Source: Candidatus Eiseniibacteriota bacterium (GTDB lineage: Bacteria > Eisenbacteria > RBG-16-71-46). From it: a stretch of DNA of 64,000 nt. The position numbers were made by a program, and so were the translations under genes. The DNA lies in contig CAVUWA010000002.1 of the NCBI GenBank assembly GCA_963744995.1, positions 763,302-827,301 of the forward strand, in the 5' to 3' direction. The notes under the pieces are model-generated. The model saw only the letters and a program-made list of their open reading frames with translations, did no database searches and had not been told where the DNA came from. Below are positions 54,016-63,895 of the stretch, one piece after another (positions within the stretch are counted from its first letter, which is position 1; each line of letters starts with the position of its first letter).

Positions 54016-55289
54016 GGACGGCGCCCCGCGATCAGGTCGAACGCGTTGCGGCGATAGATGTAGACGACCAGCCTGGGCTGTCGCGATGGGTCGGAGGTCG
54101 TGGGGGAGGCCCAGCCGAAGTTGGAGTCGGCATCGAGGCGGTAGCCGAAGCGCGCCCTCCCGCGCATGCGCGACTCGAGGTGCGAGGCGAGGCGCGGCGA
54201 ATGGAACCGCACCCGATTGCCCGCCATCACTTCACCGATCGCGAGCGGCGAGGCAGTGGGGTCGTCGTAGGGCGGCCCCGGGTAACCGATGCCGCATGCC
54301 ATCCATGCACCCTCGGTGCCGCTGATCGTGAGCCTGCGCCCGTTCGGGTTGGAGCCCGCCGACGAAGGCGTGAGGACGAGGACCGCGTCCGCGAGCCGCA
54401 GGTCGTCGCCGTACCCGCTCAGCTCCCAGTCCATCGCACCGTTGTAGGAGGGCCCGCAACCCACGGTCGCGCTGAAGCAGCTCCGGACATCGCCGAAGTT
54501 CGACACGTGTCGCACCGAGGCCCACTGCGAGCACACCAGTGTCAGCGAGTCGACCGGCAGTCCCGTCGAGAGCGTCCCGAAGCGCCAGACCGGACCCTCG
54601 GCCACTTCGCCCGTGGACAGATTCGTCGCTCTCACCGACCAGTAGTGCGTCTCACCCAGCGTCCAGGCCGGGTCGGGAGCATAGGTGGCGAAGCCCGTCG
54701 CGGCGACCGCGGGCGCCGTGCGGGCCGCGACCGACGCCGAGTCGGAGCTTTCGAAGATCTCGTAGCGGATCGTACCGGCGGTGGGCTCGGTGGAGTCCCA
54801 CGCGAGCGGCACGAACGCCGACTCGTCCACCGTGCCGGCTGCGGGCGAGGGATGCGCCGGACGCCGCACGCCGTTGGTCCTGAACTGCCAGAAGAACGGC
54901 TCGAGCGCGGCGCCGTCCGCGGCGCGCACCCCGTCGCCGAAGCTCACCGTGTGAGTGCGCAGCAGCTCGAGCAGGGCCTGCGGCTCGATGTGCACGCGCC
55001 GCCGCGCAGGCTCCCAGGTGATCGCGATCGGGATCCGCCGCGTATCGCGCTTGAGGAAGATGCGATCGGGGCCGAGCGTCGCAGGGTCCAGGTCGCGATC
55101 GAAGTCGGCCCAGATGTCGGTCTCGGCGAGCACGCCGGTCGAGCGGCTCGCCGGCATGAGGCCCGTCACCAGCGCCGGCGGCGCTTCTTCCGGGCCGGCG
55201 AGATCCGCGGCGTGGTGCCGGGCGCAGCCGCCGAGCGCGACGGCGAGCGCGAATGCAAGCGCCGAAGTCCGGATCGAAGGCGCGCTCAT
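54012..55289 (-). CDS. Predicted lipoprotein with Ig-like domains (middle gene)
   Basis: MSAPSIRTSALAFALAVALGGC lipobox. ATGA overlaps on both sides. The ORF-track N-terminal extension is rejected. Confidence 0.7.
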   Translation of the reverse strand: MSAPSIRTSALAFALAVALGGCARHHAADLAGPEEAPPALVTGLMPASRSTGVLAETDIWADFDRDLDPATLGPDRIFLKRDTRRIPIAITWEPARRRVHIEPQALLELLRTHTVSFGDGVRAADGAALEPFFWQFRTNGVRRPAHPSPAAGTVDESAFVPLAWDSTEPTAGTIRYEIFESSDSASVAARTAPAVAATGFATYAPDPAWTLGETHYWSVRATNLSTGEVAEGPVWRFGTLSTGLPVDSLTLVCSQWASVRHVSNFGDVRSCFSATVGCGPSYNGAMDWELSGYGDDLRLADAVLVLTPSSAGSNPNGRRLTISGTEGAWMACGIGYPGPPYDDPTASPLAIGEVMAGNRVRFHSPRLASHLESRMRGRARFGYRLDADSNFGWASPTTSDPSRQPRLVVYIYRRNAFDLIAGRRP

Positions 55290-57667
55290 CGGATCACCAC
55301 GAACTTGCCGCGCTGGGTGCCGAACGGGGAGTCCACCGTGAACAGGTAGATCCCCGATTCCACCTCCTGGCCGTTGCGCGAGACCAGGTCCCACGCGGCT
55401 TCGCCGGCGCCCGCGCGGCCGTCGTGGTGGATCACCTGCACCAGATCGCCGGCGACGGTCCAGATCTTGAGCGTGGCCTCGGCCTTCGGCATGCCCATGA
55501 AGTCGATGTGGCGGGTGCGGATGTCGCCGCTCACCGGCGGGCGCTCCCAGGCGGCCGAGGCGCGGAACGGGTTCGGCACCACCCACACCCCGCGACCCGA
55601 CGCGATCGCCTCCACGCGCGGGGTCACGCGCTCGTCGAACGAGGCGAGCAGCGCGCTCTCGAGCGGCGTGTGCAGGAAGCTGCCGTTCGGCTGGCGGCTC
55701 ACGTAGTCGTACATCGAGGTGACGACGTAGACGTAGTCGAAGCCGTTGAGCGGCGTGTCGTCGACGAACCGGTAGTGGCCCGGGGGATAGAGCTTCTTCT
55801 CGAACAGGATGCGCTCGTAGTCGACCGTGGAGTCGATCGTGGCAGTGAGTGCGGCGGCGCCGTCGAGCGGATCGTCGCTGAACACGCGGCGGATGGACCA
55901 CTGGCGGCGCTCCGGGAGCAGGGCGCCGCGACCGCTCCAGTCGTCGATCCGGTAGAGCCGGTATCCGAGGAAGCGCGACTCACGCGAGCCGTACTGACCG
56001 CCGGCAAGGAGCACCTCGGGCCGGTTGTCCCACTCGATCGTCACCCTGTGGTCGCCGGGGGTGACCCGCCAGCCGGGCGGCGGTGGGACTGCGCCGGGAT
56101 CGGTCCAGTGCAGGTGCGTCTCGCGTCCGCCGAAACCGGTGCACGGATCGCAGTCGGCGTCGGTCCAGATGCAGCTGTCTGCGGTGTAGGTGACCGCAGG
56201 GCCCGTGAACTCGCAACCGGGGAACTTGGTGGTGTTGTAGCAGTGTGGATCCCATTCGAACGTCACGCCCGGCGGCGCCGAGATACAGGACTCGTGACCA
56301 TTCAGACCCGACTCGCCCGAGTACCAGACCGTCGAGTCGGCCGTCTCGATGTCCGGGAGTAGATCAGCGAGCACCCCATCGTGATGCCGCAGCGCATCGG
56401 TCCCCACGGCGTCCACGCTGTCGGCGGCCGGGGCGACGATCAGCGCCGCCGAGAACGTGATCGACTGACCCGGTTCGAGCCTTGCGAACGGGCCGCACGA
56501 GACCAGCGCCACGTAGTCCGCGCCGTCGTCTTCGTCCGGCGCCTGCGTGAGCTGCCCGGCGAGCGCCGCATAGCGAGCCAGATCGGTCGTCGGCACACCA
56601 CCCTGCCCGGGTGGACGGTCCCTCGCGAAAATCAGGTTGCGGAACGACACACGGCTCGGCGCGCGCGCGTAACGGGCGGCGGGCGGGATCAGGCCGAGCG
56701 GATCGGTGGTGTGATCGAGTCCGATGACCGCGATTCGCGCCGGCGCGGATGATGAGGCGTCGCCGACCACCAGCGCGCGGCCGGTCACGGTCCGGATGCA
56801 CGGTTCGGGCGGCGGGACGCCAGGACCGGGGACGCACTTGATCACGTCCCGCCGCGGGCCTTCCCACGTGATGGTGTTGATCCCGAGTCCGTCGTTCACC
56901 GAGAATCCCCACGTCGCGCGCCCGATCCGGTCGTTGATGTGGCCGGACGGATCCTCGCGGCGCCGCGAGTCGAGGTCGGCATAGAGACCCACGTAGACGT
57001 CGGTCAGCGTCTCGCTGGAGTGGTTGGTGATGGTGTACTTCAACGCCGCCCAGCGATCGTACCCGGGGCGTCCCCAGCCGAGGACCTCCTGGTGCACCGA
57101 CAACCCGAGCGGGACGTGATTCTCGACGCCGGTGCTGAAACGCACCGCCTCCGGCTGGTCGTCGGTGTAATCGGCGGCGAGCAGCTGATCGGCGGCCAGA
57201 CCGATGTCCTCGTCCACCTCGCCGTCGTGGTCGTCGTCTCGACCGTTCAGGGTCTCTTCGTCGATCGCGCCGTCGCCGTCGTCGTCCACCAGCCACAGGC
57301 TGCCGAGCCGCCCGCGCCTCGCCTCGACCACCCGGTCGCTCGGGTCCAGCGTCGGCCGCCATTCGAGGAGCGGGTCGCCGGAGACGCGGATCACCCCGTC
57401 GGCGTTGCGCGCGCCCACCCACAGCGAAGCGTAGTTCAGCATCTCGTAGCCGGAGTAGGCGGGGTATTCGAGCGACGGGTCGAACGAACGACCTTCGGAG
57501 AAGAACGCGTTGCCGACGATGCCGGCGTTGGTCACGCGCATGCGGAAGGCGCCGACGTCCAGCACGGGACCCTTGTCCCCGATGTCTAGCACTGCGAATG
57601 CGCGGGCGGGAAACAGGGTGAAAAGGATGCACAGCGCGAAGGTGAATCGGCGCGTCGGCAGCTTCAA
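55286..57667 (-). CDS. Large secreted protein with Asp-rich Ca2+-binding loops, a Cys-rich module and a C-terminal FlgD-Ig/Por-type sorting domain (first gene)
   Basis: DDDGDGAIDEETLNGRDDDHDGEVDED; ...CISAPPGVTFEWDPHCYNTTKFPGCEFTG...CDPCTGFGG. Tail VWVVPNPFRASAAW...GIYLFTVDS...KFVVIR. Probable TTG start (LKLPTRRFTFALCILFTLFPARAFA) after AGGAG. Uncertain by about 80 nt. Confidence 0.7.
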   Translation of the reverse strand: MKLPTRRFTFALCILFTLFPARAFAVLDIGDKGPVLDVGAFRMRVTNAGIVGNAFFSEGRSFDPSLEYPAYSGYEMLNYASLWVGARNADGVIRVSGDPLLEWRPTLDPSDRVVEARRGRLGSLWLVDDDGDGAIDEETLNGRDDDHDGEVDEDIGLAADQLLAADYTDDQPEAVRFSTGVENHVPLGLSVHQEVLGWGRPGYDRWAALKYTITNHSSETLTDVYVGLYADLDSRRREDPSGHINDRIGRATWGFSVNDGLGINTITWEGPRRDVIKCVPGPGVPPPEPCIRTVTGRALVVGDASSSAPARIAVIGLDHTTDPLGLIPPAARYARAPSRVSFRNLIFARDRPPGQGGVPTTDLARYAALAGQLTQAPDEDDGADYVALVSCGPFARLEPGQSITFSAALIVAPAADSVDAVGTDALRHHDGVLADLLPDIETADSTVWYSGESGLNGHESCISAPPGVTFEWDPHCYNTTKFPGCEFTGPAVTYTADSCIWTDADCDPCTGFGGRETHLHWTDPGAVPPPPGWRVTPGDHRVTIEWDNRPEVLLAGGQYGSRESRFLGYRLYRIDDWSGRGALLPERRQWSIRRVFSDDPLDGAAALTATIDSTVDYERILFEKKLYPPGHYRFVDDTPLNGFDYVYVVTSMYDYVSRQPNGSFLHTPLESALLASFDERVTPRVEAIASGRGVWVVPNPFRASAAWERPPVSGDIRTRHIDFMGMPKAEATLKIWTVAGDLVQVIHHDGRAGAGEAAWDLVSRNGQEVESGIYLFTVDSPFGTQRGKFVVIR

Positions 57668-57844
57668 AGAGGACTCACTCCTGGGGGAGTCTGTGGGAGG
57701 GAAAACGTGCGAACGAGAATACCACCAACCGCGCCGCCGCCGTGGCACATCTGCGCGGCCCGCGGCTCACGGCGTGCCGCCGTAACGAGTTCGGACTTTG
57801 CGCTTGACGCCGGGCGCGACTGCGCACAAGGTAGGCGCAGACAT

Positions 57845-58095
57845 CTTCCGCGGTGCCCGCAAACAGCGGGGTAATAGGGAAGGGGGTGCGATTCCCCCAC
57901 GGTCCCGCCACTGTGATGGGTTCCCGGAGTCTCATGCGCCACTGATCCCCTGGATCGGGAAGGCGAGGCTCCGACGGCCCTCAGTCAGGAAACCTGCCCG
58001 GAAGCCATCGCTCGCAGCGCTTCGTGAGAAGGCGTTGAGGCGTTCGGCGCTCCCAGGGCTCCGTCGCTTCGCCCCCGCGAAGACGGAGCTTTTCG
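57845..58095 (+). ncRNA. Cobalamin (B12) riboswitch with an intrinsic-terminator expression platform
   Basis: ggtgcccgcaaacagcggggtaatagggaagggggtgcgattcccc...gccactgtgatgg...gggaaggc...gccctcagtcaggaaacctgcccgg contains the conserved B12-box. It is followed by the hairpin ccgtcgcttcgc-cccc-gcgaagacgg plus agcuuuucg, which overlaps the btuB RBS. Confidence 0.85.
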
Positions 58096-58096
58096 A

Positions 58097-60199
58097 TTGG
58101 GCGCGGGCAACGCCGTGATCGTCGCACTCGTTCTCCTCATGTCTCTGGCGCTCGCGCACGACGCGGACGCGGCGCGCACGGCGCCGTTCGCCGAGGTCCG
58201 CCGCGATGCGCGGGGAGCCGCGGTGGCCGACTCCGCCGCCCCGCCGGCGCCGAACTCCGCCGCGCTCGAGACAAGGCTCGACTCGGTAGTGGTGCTGCCC
58301 GAGGTGGTGGTCGAGCGCGAACGGGCGCTCGACGCCGCGCGGCGCCGGCGCCCGACGGGTTTCGTCACCGAGCTGTCCCCGGACGCCGTGCCGCGCACGT
58401 ACGAGACGGCGGCCGACCTCTTGCGTCAGGCGGCCGGCGTGCACGTCGTCCAGTACGGCGGGCTCGGCGCGTTCAGCACCGTGTCGCTGCGCGGCGCGCC
58501 GGCGGGGCAGGTCGCCGTGTACGTGGATGGCGTGCCCATGCAGTCGGCGGCGCGGACCGTGGTGAATCTCGCCGAGCTGCCGATGGGTTCGATCGAGACG
58601 ATCGAGGTCTATCGCGGTGGCGCCCCGCTGTCGCTCGGGCCCGGGCGTCCGGGCGGCGCGATCCAGCTCACCACGGCGATCGGCGCCGGCGCGAGCGCGC
58701 GGGTGACGCGCGGCTCGTTCGACACGTGGGACGTGGCCGCGCGTGCCGGGGCGACGCGCGGCGCGTTCGCCGCCGCCGTACACGGGGGCTATCAGGGTTC
58801 GGACGGCGACTACCGCTATCTGAACGACAACGGCACGCCGTTCAACCCCGGTGACGACGTCGAGGCCGTGCGCGTGAACAACCGCTTCGACATGGCGCAC
58901 GGTGGCGCGCGGCTCGAATGGCGGCCGGACGACCGCTGGCGCGTGCGGGCGGCGGGGAAAATCGAGCGGCAGGGGCAGGGGTTCCCCGGGCTCGGCTCGA
59001 TCCCGGCGCTCGACGCGCGCGCGCGGCTGCTCTCGGGCGACGTGCAGTCGTCGATCGAGCGATGGTTTTCCGGCGGCGGGCGCGTCGAGTGGTCGGGACT
59101 CTGGCAGGCGGACCGGCGTCGCTTCGGGGATCCGATGGGCCGGCTCGGGCTCGGGCGGCACCTGACCGACGATCGCTTTCGCGCGATCCAGACCGCGCTG
59201 CACCTGGAGACGCCGGAGCGTTTCGACGTGCGCCTCGAAGGCGGCGTGTCGCTCCGGGGCGAGCGCGCCACGCTGCGCGATGCGCTGGACGGGCGGCCGG
59301 ATCCGCCGCCGAGCACGCGGCGCACGCAGAGCGCCCGGGCGGGGGTGCGCTGGAGGCCGGGCGCGGGGCCGGTGCTGCTGGTCGCGGACCAGCGCTGGGA
59401 CCGGTCGAGCGATCGCCTGCATGCGGCGACGCCCGGACCCGCAGGGGGGCTCGAGACCGTGCGCGAGACGCGCTCGCCGGAACTCGGTGCGCGGCTCATG
59501 CTCGGGGGCGGCGTCGAGCTGCGCGCGAACTGGGCGCAGGCCGAACGCGTACCCGACTTCCTCGAACTGTTCGGCGATCAGGGCGGCGTGAGCGGGAACC
59601 CGTCGCTGCGGCCCGAGCGCGTCGTGAGCCGTGACGCCGGCCTCGCCTGGTCGGGCCGCATGCCGCTCGTCCCGCGTGCTTCGCTCGCGTGGGCGCACTT
59701 CGAATCGAACGGCGAGGACTTCATCGTCTTCGTCAGACAGTCGCAGACCGCGGTCAAGGCGCAGAACGTCGCGCGCGCACGGATCCGCGGCGAAGAACTC
59801 TCGCTGGCGGGAGAGTTGCCGCTGGGCTTCGAGCTGGCCGCCGCGCTGACGTGGCAATCCGCGATCGACCAGGGCGACGTGCCGTTCTGGCGCGGCCACC
59901 GCCTGCCGCAGCGCCCCGGCCGGGAGTCGTACGCACGACTCGGCTGGAAGGGCGGCGTGCTGCGCGCCTCGCTCGAAGGCCGCTTCGTCGGCGACAGCTA
60001 CCGCGACCGCGCCAACCAGCAGCGCGTGCCGAGCCGCACGCTGGTCGACGCGTCATTTTCGTGGACGCCCGGCGACGGTCCGTTCCGCTTCACGCTCGAA
60101 GGCCGCAACCTCGGCGACCGCCGCGTGGCCGACGTCGCCGGCTACCCGCTGCCCGGGCGCAGCCTGCTCGCTTCCATCGACTGGCACGCGGGCCGCTGA
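58097..60199 (+). CDS. btuB: TonB-dependent receptor, probable cobalamin transporter
   Basis: TTG start after a GGAG RBS. Signal peptide; plug ...VVVLPEVVVE..., ...IETIEVYRGGAPLSLG... Lies directly downstream of the B12 riboswitch. Confidence 0.85.
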   Translation: MGAGNAVIVALVLLMSLALAHDADAARTAPFAEVRRDARGAAVADSAAPPAPNSAALETRLDSVVVLPEVVVERERALDAARRRRPTGFVTELSPDAVPRTYETAADLLRQAAGVHVVQYGGLGAFSTVSLRGAPAGQVAVYVDGVPMQSAARTVVNLAELPMGSIETIEVYRGGAPLSLGPGRPGGAIQLTTAIGAGASARVTRGSFDTWDVAARAGATRGAFAAAVHGGYQGSDGDYRYLNDNGTPFNPGDDVEAVRVNNRFDMAHGGARLEWRPDDRWRVRAAGKIERQGQGFPGLGSIPALDARARLLSGDVQSSIERWFSGGGRVEWSGLWQADRRRFGDPMGRLGLGRHLTDDRFRAIQTALHLETPERFDVRLEGGVSLRGERATLRDALDGRPDPPPSTRRTQSARAGVRWRPGAGPVLLVADQRWDRSSDRLHAATPGPAGGLETVRETRSPELGARLMLGGGVELRANWAQAERVPDFLELFGDQGGVSGNPSLRPERVVSRDAGLAWSGRMPLVPRASLAWAHFESNGEDFIVFVRQSQTAVKAQNVARARIRGEELSLAGELPLGFELAAALTWQSAIDQGDVPFWRGHRLPQRPGRESYARLGWKGGVLRASLEGRFVGDSYRDRANQQRVPSRTLVDASFSWTPGDGPFRFTLEGRNLGDRRVADVAGYPLPGRSLLASIDWHAGR

Positions 60200-60222: not shown

Positions 60223-61623
60223 ATGCATCCCGCAGGACTGCTCAGGCCGGTTCTCTTCGCCCTGCTGATCGCCGCCACCCCCGTCGCCGCCGCGGAGACC
60301 ACGGCGTACGTGGTCACCACCGACTTCGCGACCGGCAACATGGCGTCGATCTCGCTCGACACGCACGCGGTCGCCGCGAACGTGGCCAGCGTCCATTCCG
60401 ACGCGCGCGCGCGCTGGCACGACGGGCTGCTGTACGTGGTCAACCGCTACGGCCAGGACAACGTCCAGGTGGTGGACCCCGCACAGGGCTTCGCCACGAT
60501 CCGTCAGTTCTCGACCGGGCCGGGCTCGAACCCGCACGACATCGCCTTCATCAGTCCGACGAAGGCCTATGTGACGCGCTTCGAACTCGGCGACCTGCTG
60601 ATCGTGAACCCGCAGAACGGGGCCACGCTCGGGGTGATCCCGCTCGGTGCGTTCGCCGACGCCGACGGCATCCCCGAAATGGACCAGATGGTCCGCGTCG
60701 GCACGCGCGTGTTCGTGAGCCTCGAGCGGCTCGACCGCAACAACGGTTTCGTGCCCGCCGACTCGAGCCTGGTGGCGGTGATCGACACGCAGGCCGACAC
60801 CGTGATCGACGCGAACCCGCTGCAGGCCGGAATCCAGGCGATCCGCCTGCAGGGCACGCAGCCGTTCACCGAGTTCGCGTTCGACAAACCCACGTCGCGG
60901 CTGCTGATCGGCTGTGTCGGGAATTTCGGCGTGATGGACGGCGGCATCGAGCGCATCGATCCGGTGAATCTCGTGAGCGGCGGGTTCGCAATCAGCGAGG
61001 CGCAGCTCGGCGGCGACGTCAACGACCTCGTGTGGGACGGCCCCGCGCGCTCGTTCGCGATCGTCAGCGACGCCTCCTACAACACGCTGCTGGTCGCCTT
61101 CGACGCGAACGCCGGCGCGGTCACCGACACCGTGTTCGCGCCGGGCGGCTACAGCCTGGCCGACGCCGCGCTCGACGACCGCGGCGAGCTGTACGTCGCG
61201 AAGAACGATTTCAGCGCCCCCGGCGTGTTCGTGTTCGATGCCGCGACGGGTGCCGCGCTCGCCGGTCCCCTGAATACCGGGCTGCCGCCGTTCCAGATCG
61301 TGTTCGACGAGGAGAACGGGCAGGTGGCTTCGGTGCCGCGCGCCGGCGGCATCGCGCTCGCGCCGCCGTGGCCGAACCCGGCATCGCGGGAGGTGCAGTT
61401 CTCGGTCGCGCTGGAGCAGGCCGGCGAGCTCGACGTCGGTGTCTACGACGCCGCCGGTCGGCGCGTCCGCACCCTGTTCGCAGGTTCCGCCGCGGCGGGG
61501 ATCCGCGCACTGCGCTGGGATCTCACGAGCGCCGGCGGCCGCCGTGCCCCCGCGGGGCTCTACTGGCTGAGCGTCGCGGGCGCGGGCGCGCGGCGGACGC
61601 GGCGGGTCGTCGTGCTGCCGTAG
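60223..61623 (+). CDS. Secreted beta-propeller-like protein with a C-terminal FlgD-Ig/Por-type sorting domain; candidate surface B12-binding (BtuG-like) accessory protein
   Basis: GGAGGTT RBS; signal peptide MHPAGLLRPVLFALLIAATPVAAA. Repeated ...Y(V/A)...D...V blades. Tail ...PPWPNPASREVQFSV...GLYWLSV...RRVVVLP. Starts 24 nt after btuB. Confidence 0.75.
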   Translation: MHPAGLLRPVLFALLIAATPVAAAETTAYVVTTDFATGNMASISLDTHAVAANVASVHSDARARWHDGLLYVVNRYGQDNVQVVDPAQGFATIRQFSTGPGSNPHDIAFISPTKAYVTRFELGDLLIVNPQNGATLGVIPLGAFADADGIPEMDQMVRVGTRVFVSLERLDRNNGFVPADSSLVAVIDTQADTVIDANPLQAGIQAIRLQGTQPFTEFAFDKPTSRLLIGCVGNFGVMDGGIERIDPVNLVSGGFAISEAQLGGDVNDLVWDGPARSFAIVSDASYNTLLVAFDANAGAVTDTVFAPGGYSLADAALDDRGELYVAKNDFSAPGVFVFDAATGAALAGPLNTGLPPFQIVFDEENGQVASVPRAGGIALAPPWPNPASREVQFSVALEQAGELDVGVYDAAGRRVRTLFAGSAAAGIRALRWDLTSAGGRRAPAGLYWLSVAGAGARRTRRVVVLP

Positions 61624-61710
61624 CCCCGCCGGGCCGCGTCGCCGGCCCCACCGCGGCCGCGTGGACGCGCGGGCCCCGCCGCGGCGGGGCCCCGCATCCT
61701 CCGCTCACGG

Positions 61711-63705
61711 CTACCGCAACTCGGCGCTCGCCCCCGCCACCTTCTTCCACGGCTCCTTGCGACCGCCCAGGTATTTCGCCAGGAACTCCTCGGTGCGTCC
61801 GTTGAAGTCCTCGCCGTTGGCCGGCCGGCCGAAGCCGTGGCCTTCGTCGGGATAGACCACGTACGTCACGTCGCGCCCGTGACGGCGCATGGCCTCGACG
61901 ATCTGGTTCGATGACGCGATCGTCACCCGCGGGTCGTTGGCGCCGTGCCCGATCAGCAGCGGCGCGCGGATCGTGTCCACGTGGTACAGCGGCGAGATCG
62001 CCCGGTTCAGCGAATCGTCGTGCATGACGTCGCCGACGCGCGAAATCCAGCGCTTGAGACGCGGCTTCCAGTAGGGTGGGAAGGAGGCGATCAGAACGCG
62101 CAGGTCCGAAGGGCCGACGACGTCCACGCCGCAGGCGTAGAGCTCCGGCGTGAACGCGAGCCCGGCGAGCGTCGCGTAGCCGCCGTAGGAGCCGCCCATG
62201 ATCCCGATCCGCTTCGGGTCGGCGATGCCCTGTGCGATTGCCCAGCGCACGCCGTCGCTGACGTCCTGCTGCATGTGACCGGTGCCCATCTGGCCCGTGC
62301 TGGCCGCCACGAACGCGTTGCCGAACCCGGTCGAGCCGCGGAATTCAGGCTGCAGAACCGCGTAGCCCCGGTTGGCGAGCCACTGCACCTCCAGATTGAA
62401 GCCCCACTCGTCGCGCGCCCACGGGCCGCCATGCGGCATCACCACCATCGGCAGATGCTTTGCCGGCACGCCGACCGGCAGCGTCAGAAACGCCGAGATC
62501 TCGAGGCCGTCGCCGGCCTCGTAGGTCACCGGCTTCATCGGCGCGAACGTGTACTTGTCCAGCCCCGGCCGGTGCTCGAACAGCAGCTCGAGGTCGCCGC
62601 TCCGCCGATCGTAGACGTAGTACGCACCGGGATGAACGTCCGAATAGAACGCCACGATCCAGCGCCGGTCGTCGCGATCGCGGCTCACGACGTCGAACGC
62701 CCCTTTGCCTGCCTCGCGCAGGCGCGCGAAGTCCTTTTCGAGCGCAGGATCGACGACCCGCCACTCGGGAATCATCCGGTGCACCCTGTAGGCCTGAATC
62801 GCATCGTTCACGGGCGAGGTCATCACGGCCACCGGGAAGAATTCCTGTGACACGCTGAGCGCGTTGTAGAGGTCGTTCTTCGGGTCGGCCGGGATCAGGT
62901 CGTGCTGCGCGCCGCTCGCGAGGTCGACCTCGACGATGCGCGTGGTATTGGAGCCGACACAGGACTGCACGCGCAGCGCACGGCCGTCGGGCGAAAAGCC
63001 GAGCACGCGCTGGAAGCGATCGAACCCCGCCTCCTCGAACGACCACTTCAGCAGGTCGCGCCACGGTCCGCCCGCTTCGTCGCGCACCCGGATGATCGCG
63101 CTGCCCTGGTCGTCGATGGCCGCGCACGCGCGGATGTGGAAGTCGGCGTCGGCCACCCATTCGACCACGCCGCCCGGGTTTTCGGCCTCGAGCGTGACGT
63201 CGCCCGTCTCGAGGTTCACCCGGTACATGTCGATGACGGCCGGATCGCGCCGGTTGAGGCCCACCAGAACCACGTCGCGGTGGCGCGGGTCGGTGAGCAG
63301 GTTCGCGGCGCGCACGCCGGGGAACGGCGTCAGGTCGCGCGCGGCGCCCCCCGCGAGGTCGGTGGACCACAGGTGCCAGTTCTCGTCGCCGTCGCGGTCC
63401 TGGATGTAGAGCAGCCGGTCGCCGGCGGGGGCCCACGCGTAGGCGTAGACCCCGCGCTTCGTCGCGCGGGTGAGCTGGCGATCTTCGCGGGTGCCGACCT
63501 TCCGCACGAACAGATTGCGGATCCCCCCCTCTCCGGCGCCGGCGAAGGCGAGGTGGACGCCGTCCGGCGAGATCTGCGGATCGCCGTGGTCGGCCGGGGC
63601 GAACAGTTCGGCGCGCGGCACGAGCGGCGGCAGGGCCGCCGTCGCGGGCATCGTGGCGCCCAGCAGCAGCAGCACGGCGAGCATCGAAGCGAAATGGAAA
63701 GCCAT
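61711..63705 (-). CDS. S9-family serine peptidase (prolyl-oligopeptidase/acylaminoacyl-peptidase-like): N-terminal beta-propeller plus C-terminal alpha/beta hydrolase
   Basis: Signal peptide MAFHFASMLAVLLLLGATMPATAA. ...SPDG... blades. Nucleophile GGSYGG, ...DDSLNRA..., ...GHG. AGGAGA RBS. Confidence 0.85.
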   Translation of the reverse strand: MAFHFASMLAVLLLLGATMPATAALPPLVPRAELFAPADHGDPQISPDGVHLAFAGAGEGGIRNLFVRKVGTREDRQLTRATKRGVYAYAWAPAGDRLLYIQDRDGDENWHLWSTDLAGGAARDLTPFPGVRAANLLTDPRHRDVVLVGLNRRDPAVIDMYRVNLETGDVTLEAENPGGVVEWVADADFHIRACAAIDDQGSAIIRVRDEAGGPWRDLLKWSFEEAGFDRFQRVLGFSPDGRALRVQSCVGSNTTRIVEVDLASGAQHDLIPADPKNDLYNALSVSQEFFPVAVMTSPVNDAIQAYRVHRMIPEWRVVDPALEKDFARLREAGKGAFDVVSRDRDDRRWIVAFYSDVHPGAYYVYDRRSGDLELLFEHRPGLDKYTFAPMKPVTYEAGDGLEISAFLTLPVGVPAKHLPMVVMPHGGPWARDEWGFNLEVQWLANRGYAVLQPEFRGSTGFGNAFVAASTGQMGTGHMQQDVSDGVRWAIAQGIADPKRIGIMGGSYGGYATLAGLAFTPELYACGVDVVGPSDLRVLIASFPPYWKPRLKRWISRVGDVMHDDSLNRAISPLYHVDTIRAPLLIGHGANDPRVTIASSNQIVEAMRRHGRDVTYVVYPDEGHGFGRPANGEDFNGRTEEFLAKYLGGRKEPWKKVAGASAELR

Positions 63706-63895
63706 GGCGTCTCCTGACAGGGTGTCTCGGGTCGACCGACTGGTGTGGTGAGAACGCTTTGCATCCGGACGGCCGTGAGCCATCATCGCACGCTACGCGC
63801 CCGGCGGCGCGAATGTTTCGGGCGCGGCCCGGCGCCGCCGGACGGATCGGAATCGCGGACCTGCGCCGCAGGGCACATCGAACGGGAGGGAGAGG

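Follow-up and report, generated by a model that had tools for sequence, protein, structure and literature searches.

How does a cobalamin riboswitch pass ligand binding on to its gene in a high-GC, uncultured phylum? The question is raised by a stretch of 64,000 nucleotides from a Candidatus Eiseniibacteriota bacterium (contig CAVUWA010000002.1; the whole stretch is called the window below), in which such a riboswitch precedes the gene of a TonB-dependent receptor. The original prediction for this locus described a riboswitch followed by a terminator that takes up the RBS (ribosome binding site) belonging to a TTG-initiated btuB gene, and proposed combined transcriptional and translational OFF control. 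The best explanation of our results, in which our confidence is somewhat better than even, is that a platform consisting of a hairpin called P13, an antiterminator and a GC-rich hairpin called H2 turns a two-gene operon for B12 capture off at high cobalamin levels. Coordinates are collected in Table 1.

The comparison covers 160 related loci, 80 of them fetched from genomes and 80 from metagenomes. In 112 of the 160 a motif search found the B12 box together with the conserved start segment, and this set contains 102 unique leaders. The common layout of these roughly 100 leaders is a promoter, the aptamer, P13, H2 and a start-codon hairpin, H3. What the analysis shows is the aptamer and its conservation, the aptamer helix P1, P13, H2, H3, a pairing alternative and the place where the start codon lies. 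P13 is placed 4 nt 3' of P1 and was named by this position. In an alignment of 41 leaders, five of the nine pairs of its upper stem have changed on both sides, and its lower stem co-varies as well (GCUCG:UGAGGC in the window, ACGCG:CGCGG in leaders L045 and L048). The covariation of the whole structure in this alignment is 0.146 as compared to 0.111 in shuffles, none of 500 shuffles reaching the real value, and 82.7% of its cells are paired against 37-53% in slid registers. H2 is found in 36 of the 41 leaders with a median of -25 kcal/mol, and its base pairs co-vary in relatives. In the window its outer stem is formed by GCUCCGUC (58058-65) with GACGGAGC (58082-89) and its inner stem by UUCGC (58068-72) with GCGAA (58077-81), closed by a CCCC loop. 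The fold energy is -22.3 kcal/mol (z -3.2), and none of 200 shuffles is equally stable. L082 is the closest relative, with 64% identity at the protein level. It shares about 95% of the nucleotides of the aptamer, P13 and the start segment with the window, but its H2 has an entirely different sequence and still folds.

An antiterminator pairing, on which the original prediction depended, does exist: the 3' side of P13 can pair with the 5' arm of H2. When the window sequence is folded as a growing transcript, the RNA up to 58042 forms P13 (-14.8 kcal/mol), and the antiterminator is the minimum free energy (MFE) structure once 58072 is reached (-28.7 kcal/mol). At 58093, P13 plus H2 has taken over, with -43.6 kcal/mol as compared to -35.7 kcal/mol when the antiterminator is forced. 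Among 36 leaders the nascent MFE structure holds at least 5 antiterminator pairs in 26, and H2 is present at full length in 27. Furthermore, the 3' side of P13 prefers the H2 5' arm of its own leader to arms taken from other leaders: the binding energies add up to -616, the mean after permutation is -553, and none of 5000 permutations is as low, although the test takes no account of kinship among the leaders. This comparison of own and other arms was the only one of the tests tried that revealed the antiterminator. At the level of sequence, the terminator/antiterminator idea is supported by such comparative evidence.

On this basis we propose the following. Transcription of the riboswitch would begin at a conserved promoter of its own. 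In the ligand-free state, the 3' side of P13 would pair with the 5' arm of H2 and bury S3, a segment lying just 5' of H2. H2 could then not form, transcription would read through and the start region would be more open. With ligand bound, P13 would be held closed and H2 would form. H2 would then be either an intrinsic terminator or a clamp by which S3 can close over the start region, or it would combine the two roles. Within this explanation we infer the OFF logic, the stabilisation of P13 by the ligand and the type of output, be it termination, translational occlusion or both.

Besides the kinship left out of the permutation test, several observations weigh against this explanation. In the window itself the antiterminator energy is unremarkable in comparison with other arms (z -0.3 and +0.7), and the duplex of S3 with the start region (S3:S5) is weak (z -0.3). 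Nested thermodynamic models gave no P1-dependent change in H2 formation or in start accessibility. A canonical kissing loop between L5 and L13 is not seen, as the P13 apex carries CGGG(A) in none of the 41 leaders and CGGA in 12 of them. A strict terminator scan found no site at H2. The U-tract behind H2 is short (4 U), is not conserved in about a third of the leaders and is missing altogether in the clade of L026, L028 and L038. Full-length folds with P1 enforced or with its 5' strand blocked gave start accessibilities of 0.31 and 0.29, that is, no effect.

Across the leaders the 9-nt tail past H2 contains 2-6 U, with UUU in about half of them, and in many leaders these U's double as the lower stem of H3 (UUUCGAU with AUCGAGA). 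A loose scan for a hairpin plus tail gives about 60 matches in the window, most of which fall within genes; taken by itself, the U-tail is thus weak evidence and nothing exceptional. What had been described as a terminator stem-loop with a U-tract is a real and conserved hairpin that is indeed followed by UUUU, but the strict scan is negative and the tail is unexceptional. Elsewhere in the window a perfect GC hairpin, GGGCCCCGCCGCGGCGGGGCCC, is located at 61660-61695 between the convergent genes of a BtuG-like protein and an S9 peptidase, with no flanking U or A tract. It may be a bidirectional terminator that lacks U's. Because of this hairpin, either terminators in this genome may need no U-tract, or H2 may not terminate. 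The U-tract would be dispensable in some clades.

Where translation of the receptor gene starts bears on the claim that a single hairpin acts at both levels, i.e. that the 3' arm of terminator H2 carries the GGAG RBS of a TTG-initiated gene. We consider this improbable. The start aligned across 81 leaders is GTG 58115 (GTG in 63, ATG in 18), and the conserved 'MI...' N-terminus is encoded from this GTG or ATG, 18 nt downstream of TTG 58097. An equivalent of TTG 58097 is present in 43 leaders, of which no more than 7 have it in frame, 30 in frame +1 and 6 in frame +2; other leaders have ATCC, ATCG or TTC at this position. In five leaders (L042, L043, L046, L047 and L035) the start is shifted a few bases downstream and the GAUCG is kept at its place, which therefore reflects a constraint on the RNA and not on the coding sequence. 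In H3, moreover, the TTG pairs with the start codon. The predicted GGAG (58085-88) does lie in the 3' arm of H2, but it is 26 nt upstream of the conserved start and is for this reason unlikely to be the RBS; nor is it conserved among the leaders. H2 ends 22-25 nt before GTG 58115.

There are arguments for the TTG as well. In the window it is in frame, GGAG stands 8 nt before it, and the public gene call (Logan/NCBI) uses it, giving a receptor of 700 aa instead of the 694 aa from GTG 58115. The organism does use Shine-Dalgarno sequences, as the next gene has GGAGG 4 nt ahead of its ATG, and the divergent upstream gene is probably TTG-started. Dual platforms whose RBS lies within a terminator's 3' side are a known category, described by Barrick & Breaker 2007 together with a 10-nt rule (PMC2258182). 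The locus resembles them in having a terminator-like hairpin near the open reading frame, so that both levels of control are conceivable. It differs in that the conserved start is past the hairpin by the distance given above and the RBS is not in the 3' arm; the 10-nt rule is satisfied only if the non-conserved TTG is taken as the start, and a translational effect would have to come from a second helix (S3:S5 or H3). It is possible that TTG 58097 serves as the start at this one locus, although this is not the conserved state. From the alignment, the conserved start of the receptor gene is GTG 58115, and public calls would be corrected to it.

The start codon is itself part of a hairpin. RNAalifold on the 41 leaders pairs CGAU with AUCG and GGCG with CGCC to form H3; in the window the lower pairs are C58094-G58121, G95-C120, A96-U119, U97-A118, U98·G117 and G99·U116. 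The partners of TTG 58097 are in this way A58118 and two bases of the GTG start codon, its U and its second G. H3 pairing holds in 92.6% of the cells, and the value for 67 sequences is 80% as compared to 24-56% in slid registers. Compensatory changes occur as CGUU/AACG in L016 and L102 and as UGAU/AUCA in five leaders. Overall covariation of H3 is not above shuffles, sequence variation being scarce, and neither is its energy of -11.1 kcal/mol. Nucleotide conservation of the leaders reaches well beyond the aptamer, and their conserved end reads ...UUUCGAUUG(R)GGCGCG(NNN)GACGCC-GUG-AUCG. A segment of about 30-35 nt (58092-58121), UUCGAUUG..GCGCG...GACGCC-GUG-AUCG, is near-invariant even though the proteins behind these leaders share only about 45-50% identity. 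This conservation exceeds the need of H3 pairing; a binding site and a tertiary contact are possibilities.

S3 offers a second route to the start codon. In many leaders it is complementary to the start region over 8-11 bp that cover the start codon; the S3:S5 duplex has a mean z of -1.6, with 18 of 36 leaders below -1.5, and L019 matches its AUG start with AUGGCG. In 19 of 25 leaders, forcing H2 makes the start region less accessible than forcing the antiterminator does (means 0.31 and 0.36), and the corresponding values for the window are 0.27 and 0.42. Of the combined OFF control proposed originally, the translational component is plausible on sequence grounds, via S3:S5 or H3, but not through an RBS in the terminator arm.

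If this is taken further, the switch could be purely translational. H2 would then never terminate but clamp S3 to the start region, the start being hidden by 58040-55:58098-113 or by H3, and any transcriptional effect would be secondary, e.g. through Rho. We regard this as a possible but rather unlikely alternative. It would agree with the poorly conserved U-tract, with the lower accessibility of the start codon in the H2 state and with the average strength of S3:S5, including the matched AUG of L019. The clade without U's (L026, L028 and L038) has strong complementarity to its own arm (zc about -2.7) and forms a 10-bp S3:S5 helix over an AAGGA Shine-Dalgarno-like motif. The U-less GC hairpin between convergent genes would fit too, and outside Firmicutes control of translation is the commonest mechanism (PMC2258182). 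On the other hand, about half of the leaders, the window included, have a weak S3:S5, and the difference in mean accessibility is small. In the window UUUU directly follows a hairpin of -22 kcal/mol, and a conserved GC-rich stem base beside U's is typical of terminators. Another view is that H2 and H3 are constitutive, serving mRNA stability or as a protein or small RNA site, and that the riboswitch acts only via an unrecognised tertiary contact. The near-invariant segment from UUCGAUUG to AUCG, conserved far beyond the need of base pairing, would suit such a view, as would the missing L13 and the thermodynamic models that see no switch. We find it very improbable, since the co-variation of P13 with the H2 arm of its own leader is hard to explain without alternative pairing; in addition, the segment has no matching Rfam family, a permissive E-value search of 57700-58250 for a second Rfam motif having returned nothing credible.

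Returning to the P13/antiterminator/H2 platform, it can be compared with known systems. P13 of E. coli btuB is stabilised by a kissing loop that L5 (UCCCG) forms with L13. The present leader shares with the E. coli btuB leader (RF00174) the full-length aptamer, the B12 box, the L5 sequence UCCCG, a co-varying P1 and the position in front of a gene for an outer-membrane B12 receptor. It differs in coming from a high-GC Eisenbacteria metagenome-assembled genome (MAG), in having a terminator-like hairpin and a separate start-codon hairpin, and in the absence of an L13 loop complementary to L5. In Priestia megaterium metE the P13/antiterminator/terminator logic has been validated by compensatory mutants, and a 5-bp L5-L13 kissing loop stabilises P13 (PMC10327014). 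As in metE, P13 comes right after P1, its 3' side is common to P13 and the antiterminator and complementary to the 5' side of the next GC-rich hairpin, and OFF control is expected. In contrast to metE, P13 has no CGGGA but either a GNRA-like GUGA loop or a longer one of the form G...GA, and the kissing loop is not found; the U-tract is weak and an extra conserved start-codon hairpin is present. The best duplexes between L5 and the P13 apex reach -3 to -8 kcal/mol, with mismatches. Because no L13 partner was found, it is by inference that ligand binding is said to hold P13 closed.

A tentative reading, to which we give a rather low probability, is a two-tier platform: a terminator-like H2 free of any RBS would release S3 to close over the start-codon module, and P13 would be coupled to the aptamer without an L5-L13 kissing loop, e.g. 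by P1-P13 stacking or a GNRA-type contact. If this is true, the platform is a lineage-specific variant of corrinoid riboswitch signalling. The leaders represent about 100 natural variants of the P13/antiterminator/hairpin platform in which a kissing-loop partner is not evident, and they bear on how binding is coupled to output in corrinoid riboswitches and on the form of terminators in such genomes.

A number of other pairings were considered and rejected. The P1 3' strand CGGA(A)GCC (57999-58006) could act as an antiterminator against GGCUCCG (58057-63). L009 even has 8 bp without a mismatch, but with a mean z of -0.2 the pairing is not conserved; blocking this strand in folds made no difference. 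'Shift-register' hairpins, in which the P1 3' strand pairs with the 5' side of P13, or the whole 3' half of P13 with the 5' arm of H2, were no better than chance and gave z +0.58 and -0.51 relative to dinucleotide shuffles. Pairing of the upper-stem 3' strand of P13 with the start region (GGCGUUG:CAACGCC, 7 bp in the window) is broken where the stem is AUGC/GCAU and the start is still GACGCC. As partners of L5, the H2 loop is C-rich, the H3 loop has CGGGCAA only in close relatives of the window, and the G-rich stretch that follows the upper stem of P13 changes together with its own 5' partner and not with L5. The GGUGNGAWUCC loop as a kissing partner varies without co-varying with UCGAU or GAUCG. 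A mutual-information scan for long-range pairs between aptamer and platform returned known helices and clade signal only.

Regarding the aptamer, the original identification as a cobalamin riboswitch is borne out. The RF00174 (Cobalamin) covariance model matches over its full length (model positions 1-189 of 189) with 104.7 bits and an E-value of 3.9e-25, well above the gathering score of 31.5, and this is the sole Rfam match in the whole window. Every conserved block named earlier can be located: GCCACTG occurs twice (57907-13 and 57938-44), the core block GGGAAGGC lies at 57957-64, and the B12 box is AGTCAGGAAACCTGCC. Of the first 20 loci, 19 have RF00174 ahead of the receptor gene; the twentieth has no upstream DNA, which makes 19 of 19. 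P1 is supported by covariation, the pair 57847:58002 being U-A in 51, C-G in 11, G-C in 8 and U-G in 7 of 78 leaders, and the aptamer pairs 57945:57955, 57883:57897 and 57859:57867 head the mutual-information list. At L5, GGUCCCGCC is invariant in 95 of 102 leaders, and the UCCCG of the window is identical to the published L5 consensus (PMC10327014). Judged by sequence, the riboswitch is genuine but ordinary, a class-I-type member of RF00174. By itself it adds little, as any Rfam scan would annotate it.

The leader also appears to have its own promoter. All but one of 90 unique leaders (89) have TTGAC-N17/18-(C)AnnnT, always equally far from P1, with a spacer of 17 nt in 79 and 18 nt in 9. The -10 element resembles CAnnnT rather than TATAAT, and a promoter scan based on TATAAT did not detect it. 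A conserved cGACAUC follows 7 nt downstream of the -10 hexamer. With GACAUC at 57840 in the window, transcription likely starts at about this position.

The riboswitch marks the downstream genes as B12-regulated. The first of them had been called btuB. It does encode a TonB-dependent receptor, but one that scores far below the BtuB equivalog cut-offs of NCBIfam (TIGR01779, 94.2 bits against 599.7; NF007926, 49.8 against 836). Its best full-length solved relative is Bacteroides BtuB1 (8BLW), its homologues are named Candidatus Eisenbacteria, and its context suggests a role in B12 uptake. The second gene encodes a BtuG-like seven-bladed propeller, predicted to be the surface B12 capture partner. 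A profile of its orthologues matches BtuG structures (E 6e-9). With its AlphaFold model (predicted local distance difference test, pLDDT, 88.9), Foldseek places BtuG2 and BtuG3 best (E about 1e-15, target-normalised TM 0.76-0.80, root-mean-square deviation 3.5-4.2 Å), and XusB and YncE rank behind them. [quoted passage not shown] By tblastn the gene is found in 149 of the 160 loci; it follows the receptor in nearly all and lies upstream in L073 and L076. These loci include MAGs labelled Krumholzibacteria, Binatia, Thermodesulfobacteriota and Myxococcales.

BtuG has been reported as exclusive to Bacteroidetes (PMC6143338; PMC10404256), and we found no published link of BtuG to Eisenbacteria or the phyla of the other loci. 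The arrangement is that of the Bacteroides B12 uptake loci described in these papers, with a riboswitch, a TonB-dependent receptor and an adjacent seven-bladed propeller of the BtuG type. It differs in its phylum, in the T9SS sorting domain that stands in place of a lipobox, in an identity of about 18% and in a receptor that is not a BtuB equivalog by NCBIfam. The riboswitch in this way exposes a BtuB/BtuG-type capture pair outside Bacteroidota.

Table 1. Features of the riboswitch leader and its operon (positions in the window)
Feature	Position	Strand	Basis
Putative -35-like promoter hexamer TTGACG	57804-57809	+	conserved in relatives
Putative -10-like hexamer CAAGGT	57827-57832	+	CAnnnT 17 nt after TTGAC
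Cobalamin riboswitch aptamer (RF00174), peripheral P6 extension included	57833-58015	+	full-model match
P1 5' strand, partner 57996-58004	57845-57854	+	Rfam alignment
L5 loop UCCCG	57903-57907	+	GGUCCCGCC in relatives
B12 box AGUCAGGAAACCUGCC	57983-57998	+	sequence, RF00174
P1 3' strand	57996-58004	+	Rfam alignment, covariation
P13-like hairpin: lower stem 58009-14:58036-42, upper stem 58015-23:58028-37, loop GUGA 58024-27	58009-58042	+	nascent MFE, covariation
Antiterminator: UGAGGCG 58036-42 with CGCUUCG 58065-71; inner CGG 58045-47:CCG 58061-63, GCUC:GGGC	58036-58071	+	nascent MFE
S3, 5' strand of a long helix extending H2, partner 58098-58113	58040-58055	+	fold of 58040-58124, -39.3 kcal/mol
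H2, GC-rich hairpin (the terminator of the original prediction)	58056-58091	+	fold, conservation
UUUU after H2, also first part of the conserved UUUCGAUUG motif	58090-58093	+	sequence
H3, start-codon hairpin: CGAUUG 58094-99:UGAUCG 58116-21, GGCG 58100-03:CGCC 58111-14, G58115 bulged, loop 58104-10	58094-58121	+	RNAalifold
TTG, start in the original prediction; here H3 5' strand	58097-58099	+	in frame in 7/43 leaders
TonB-dependent receptor coding sequence, 694 aa from GTG	58115-60199	+	Plug and barrel domains (Pfam)
BtuG-like beta-propeller, second operon gene, GGAGG at 60214-18	60223-61623	+	profile and structure comparison

On either side of the leader and operon lie genes on the minus strand. 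The divergent upstream gene (55286-57667) has no Pfam match; judged by its sequence, TTG 57667 is its probable start, as AGGAG lies 9 nt upstream and the N-terminus, MKLPTRRFTFALCILF..., resembles a signal peptide. At the other end, a gene for a peptidase of the prolyl oligopeptidase family (S9; 61711-63786) converges on the end of the operon.

Six of the related loci (L010, L020, L033, L040, L041 and L045) combine an Eisenbacteria-type leader, receptor and propeller on contigs that belong to MAGs with other names, namely Udaeobacter, Saccharimonadaceae, Methylomirabilota, Verrucomicrobiia, Limnocylindria and Acidiferrales. These contigs are probably mis-binned, because a TonB-dependent receptor in a Saccharimonadaceae bin is implausible.

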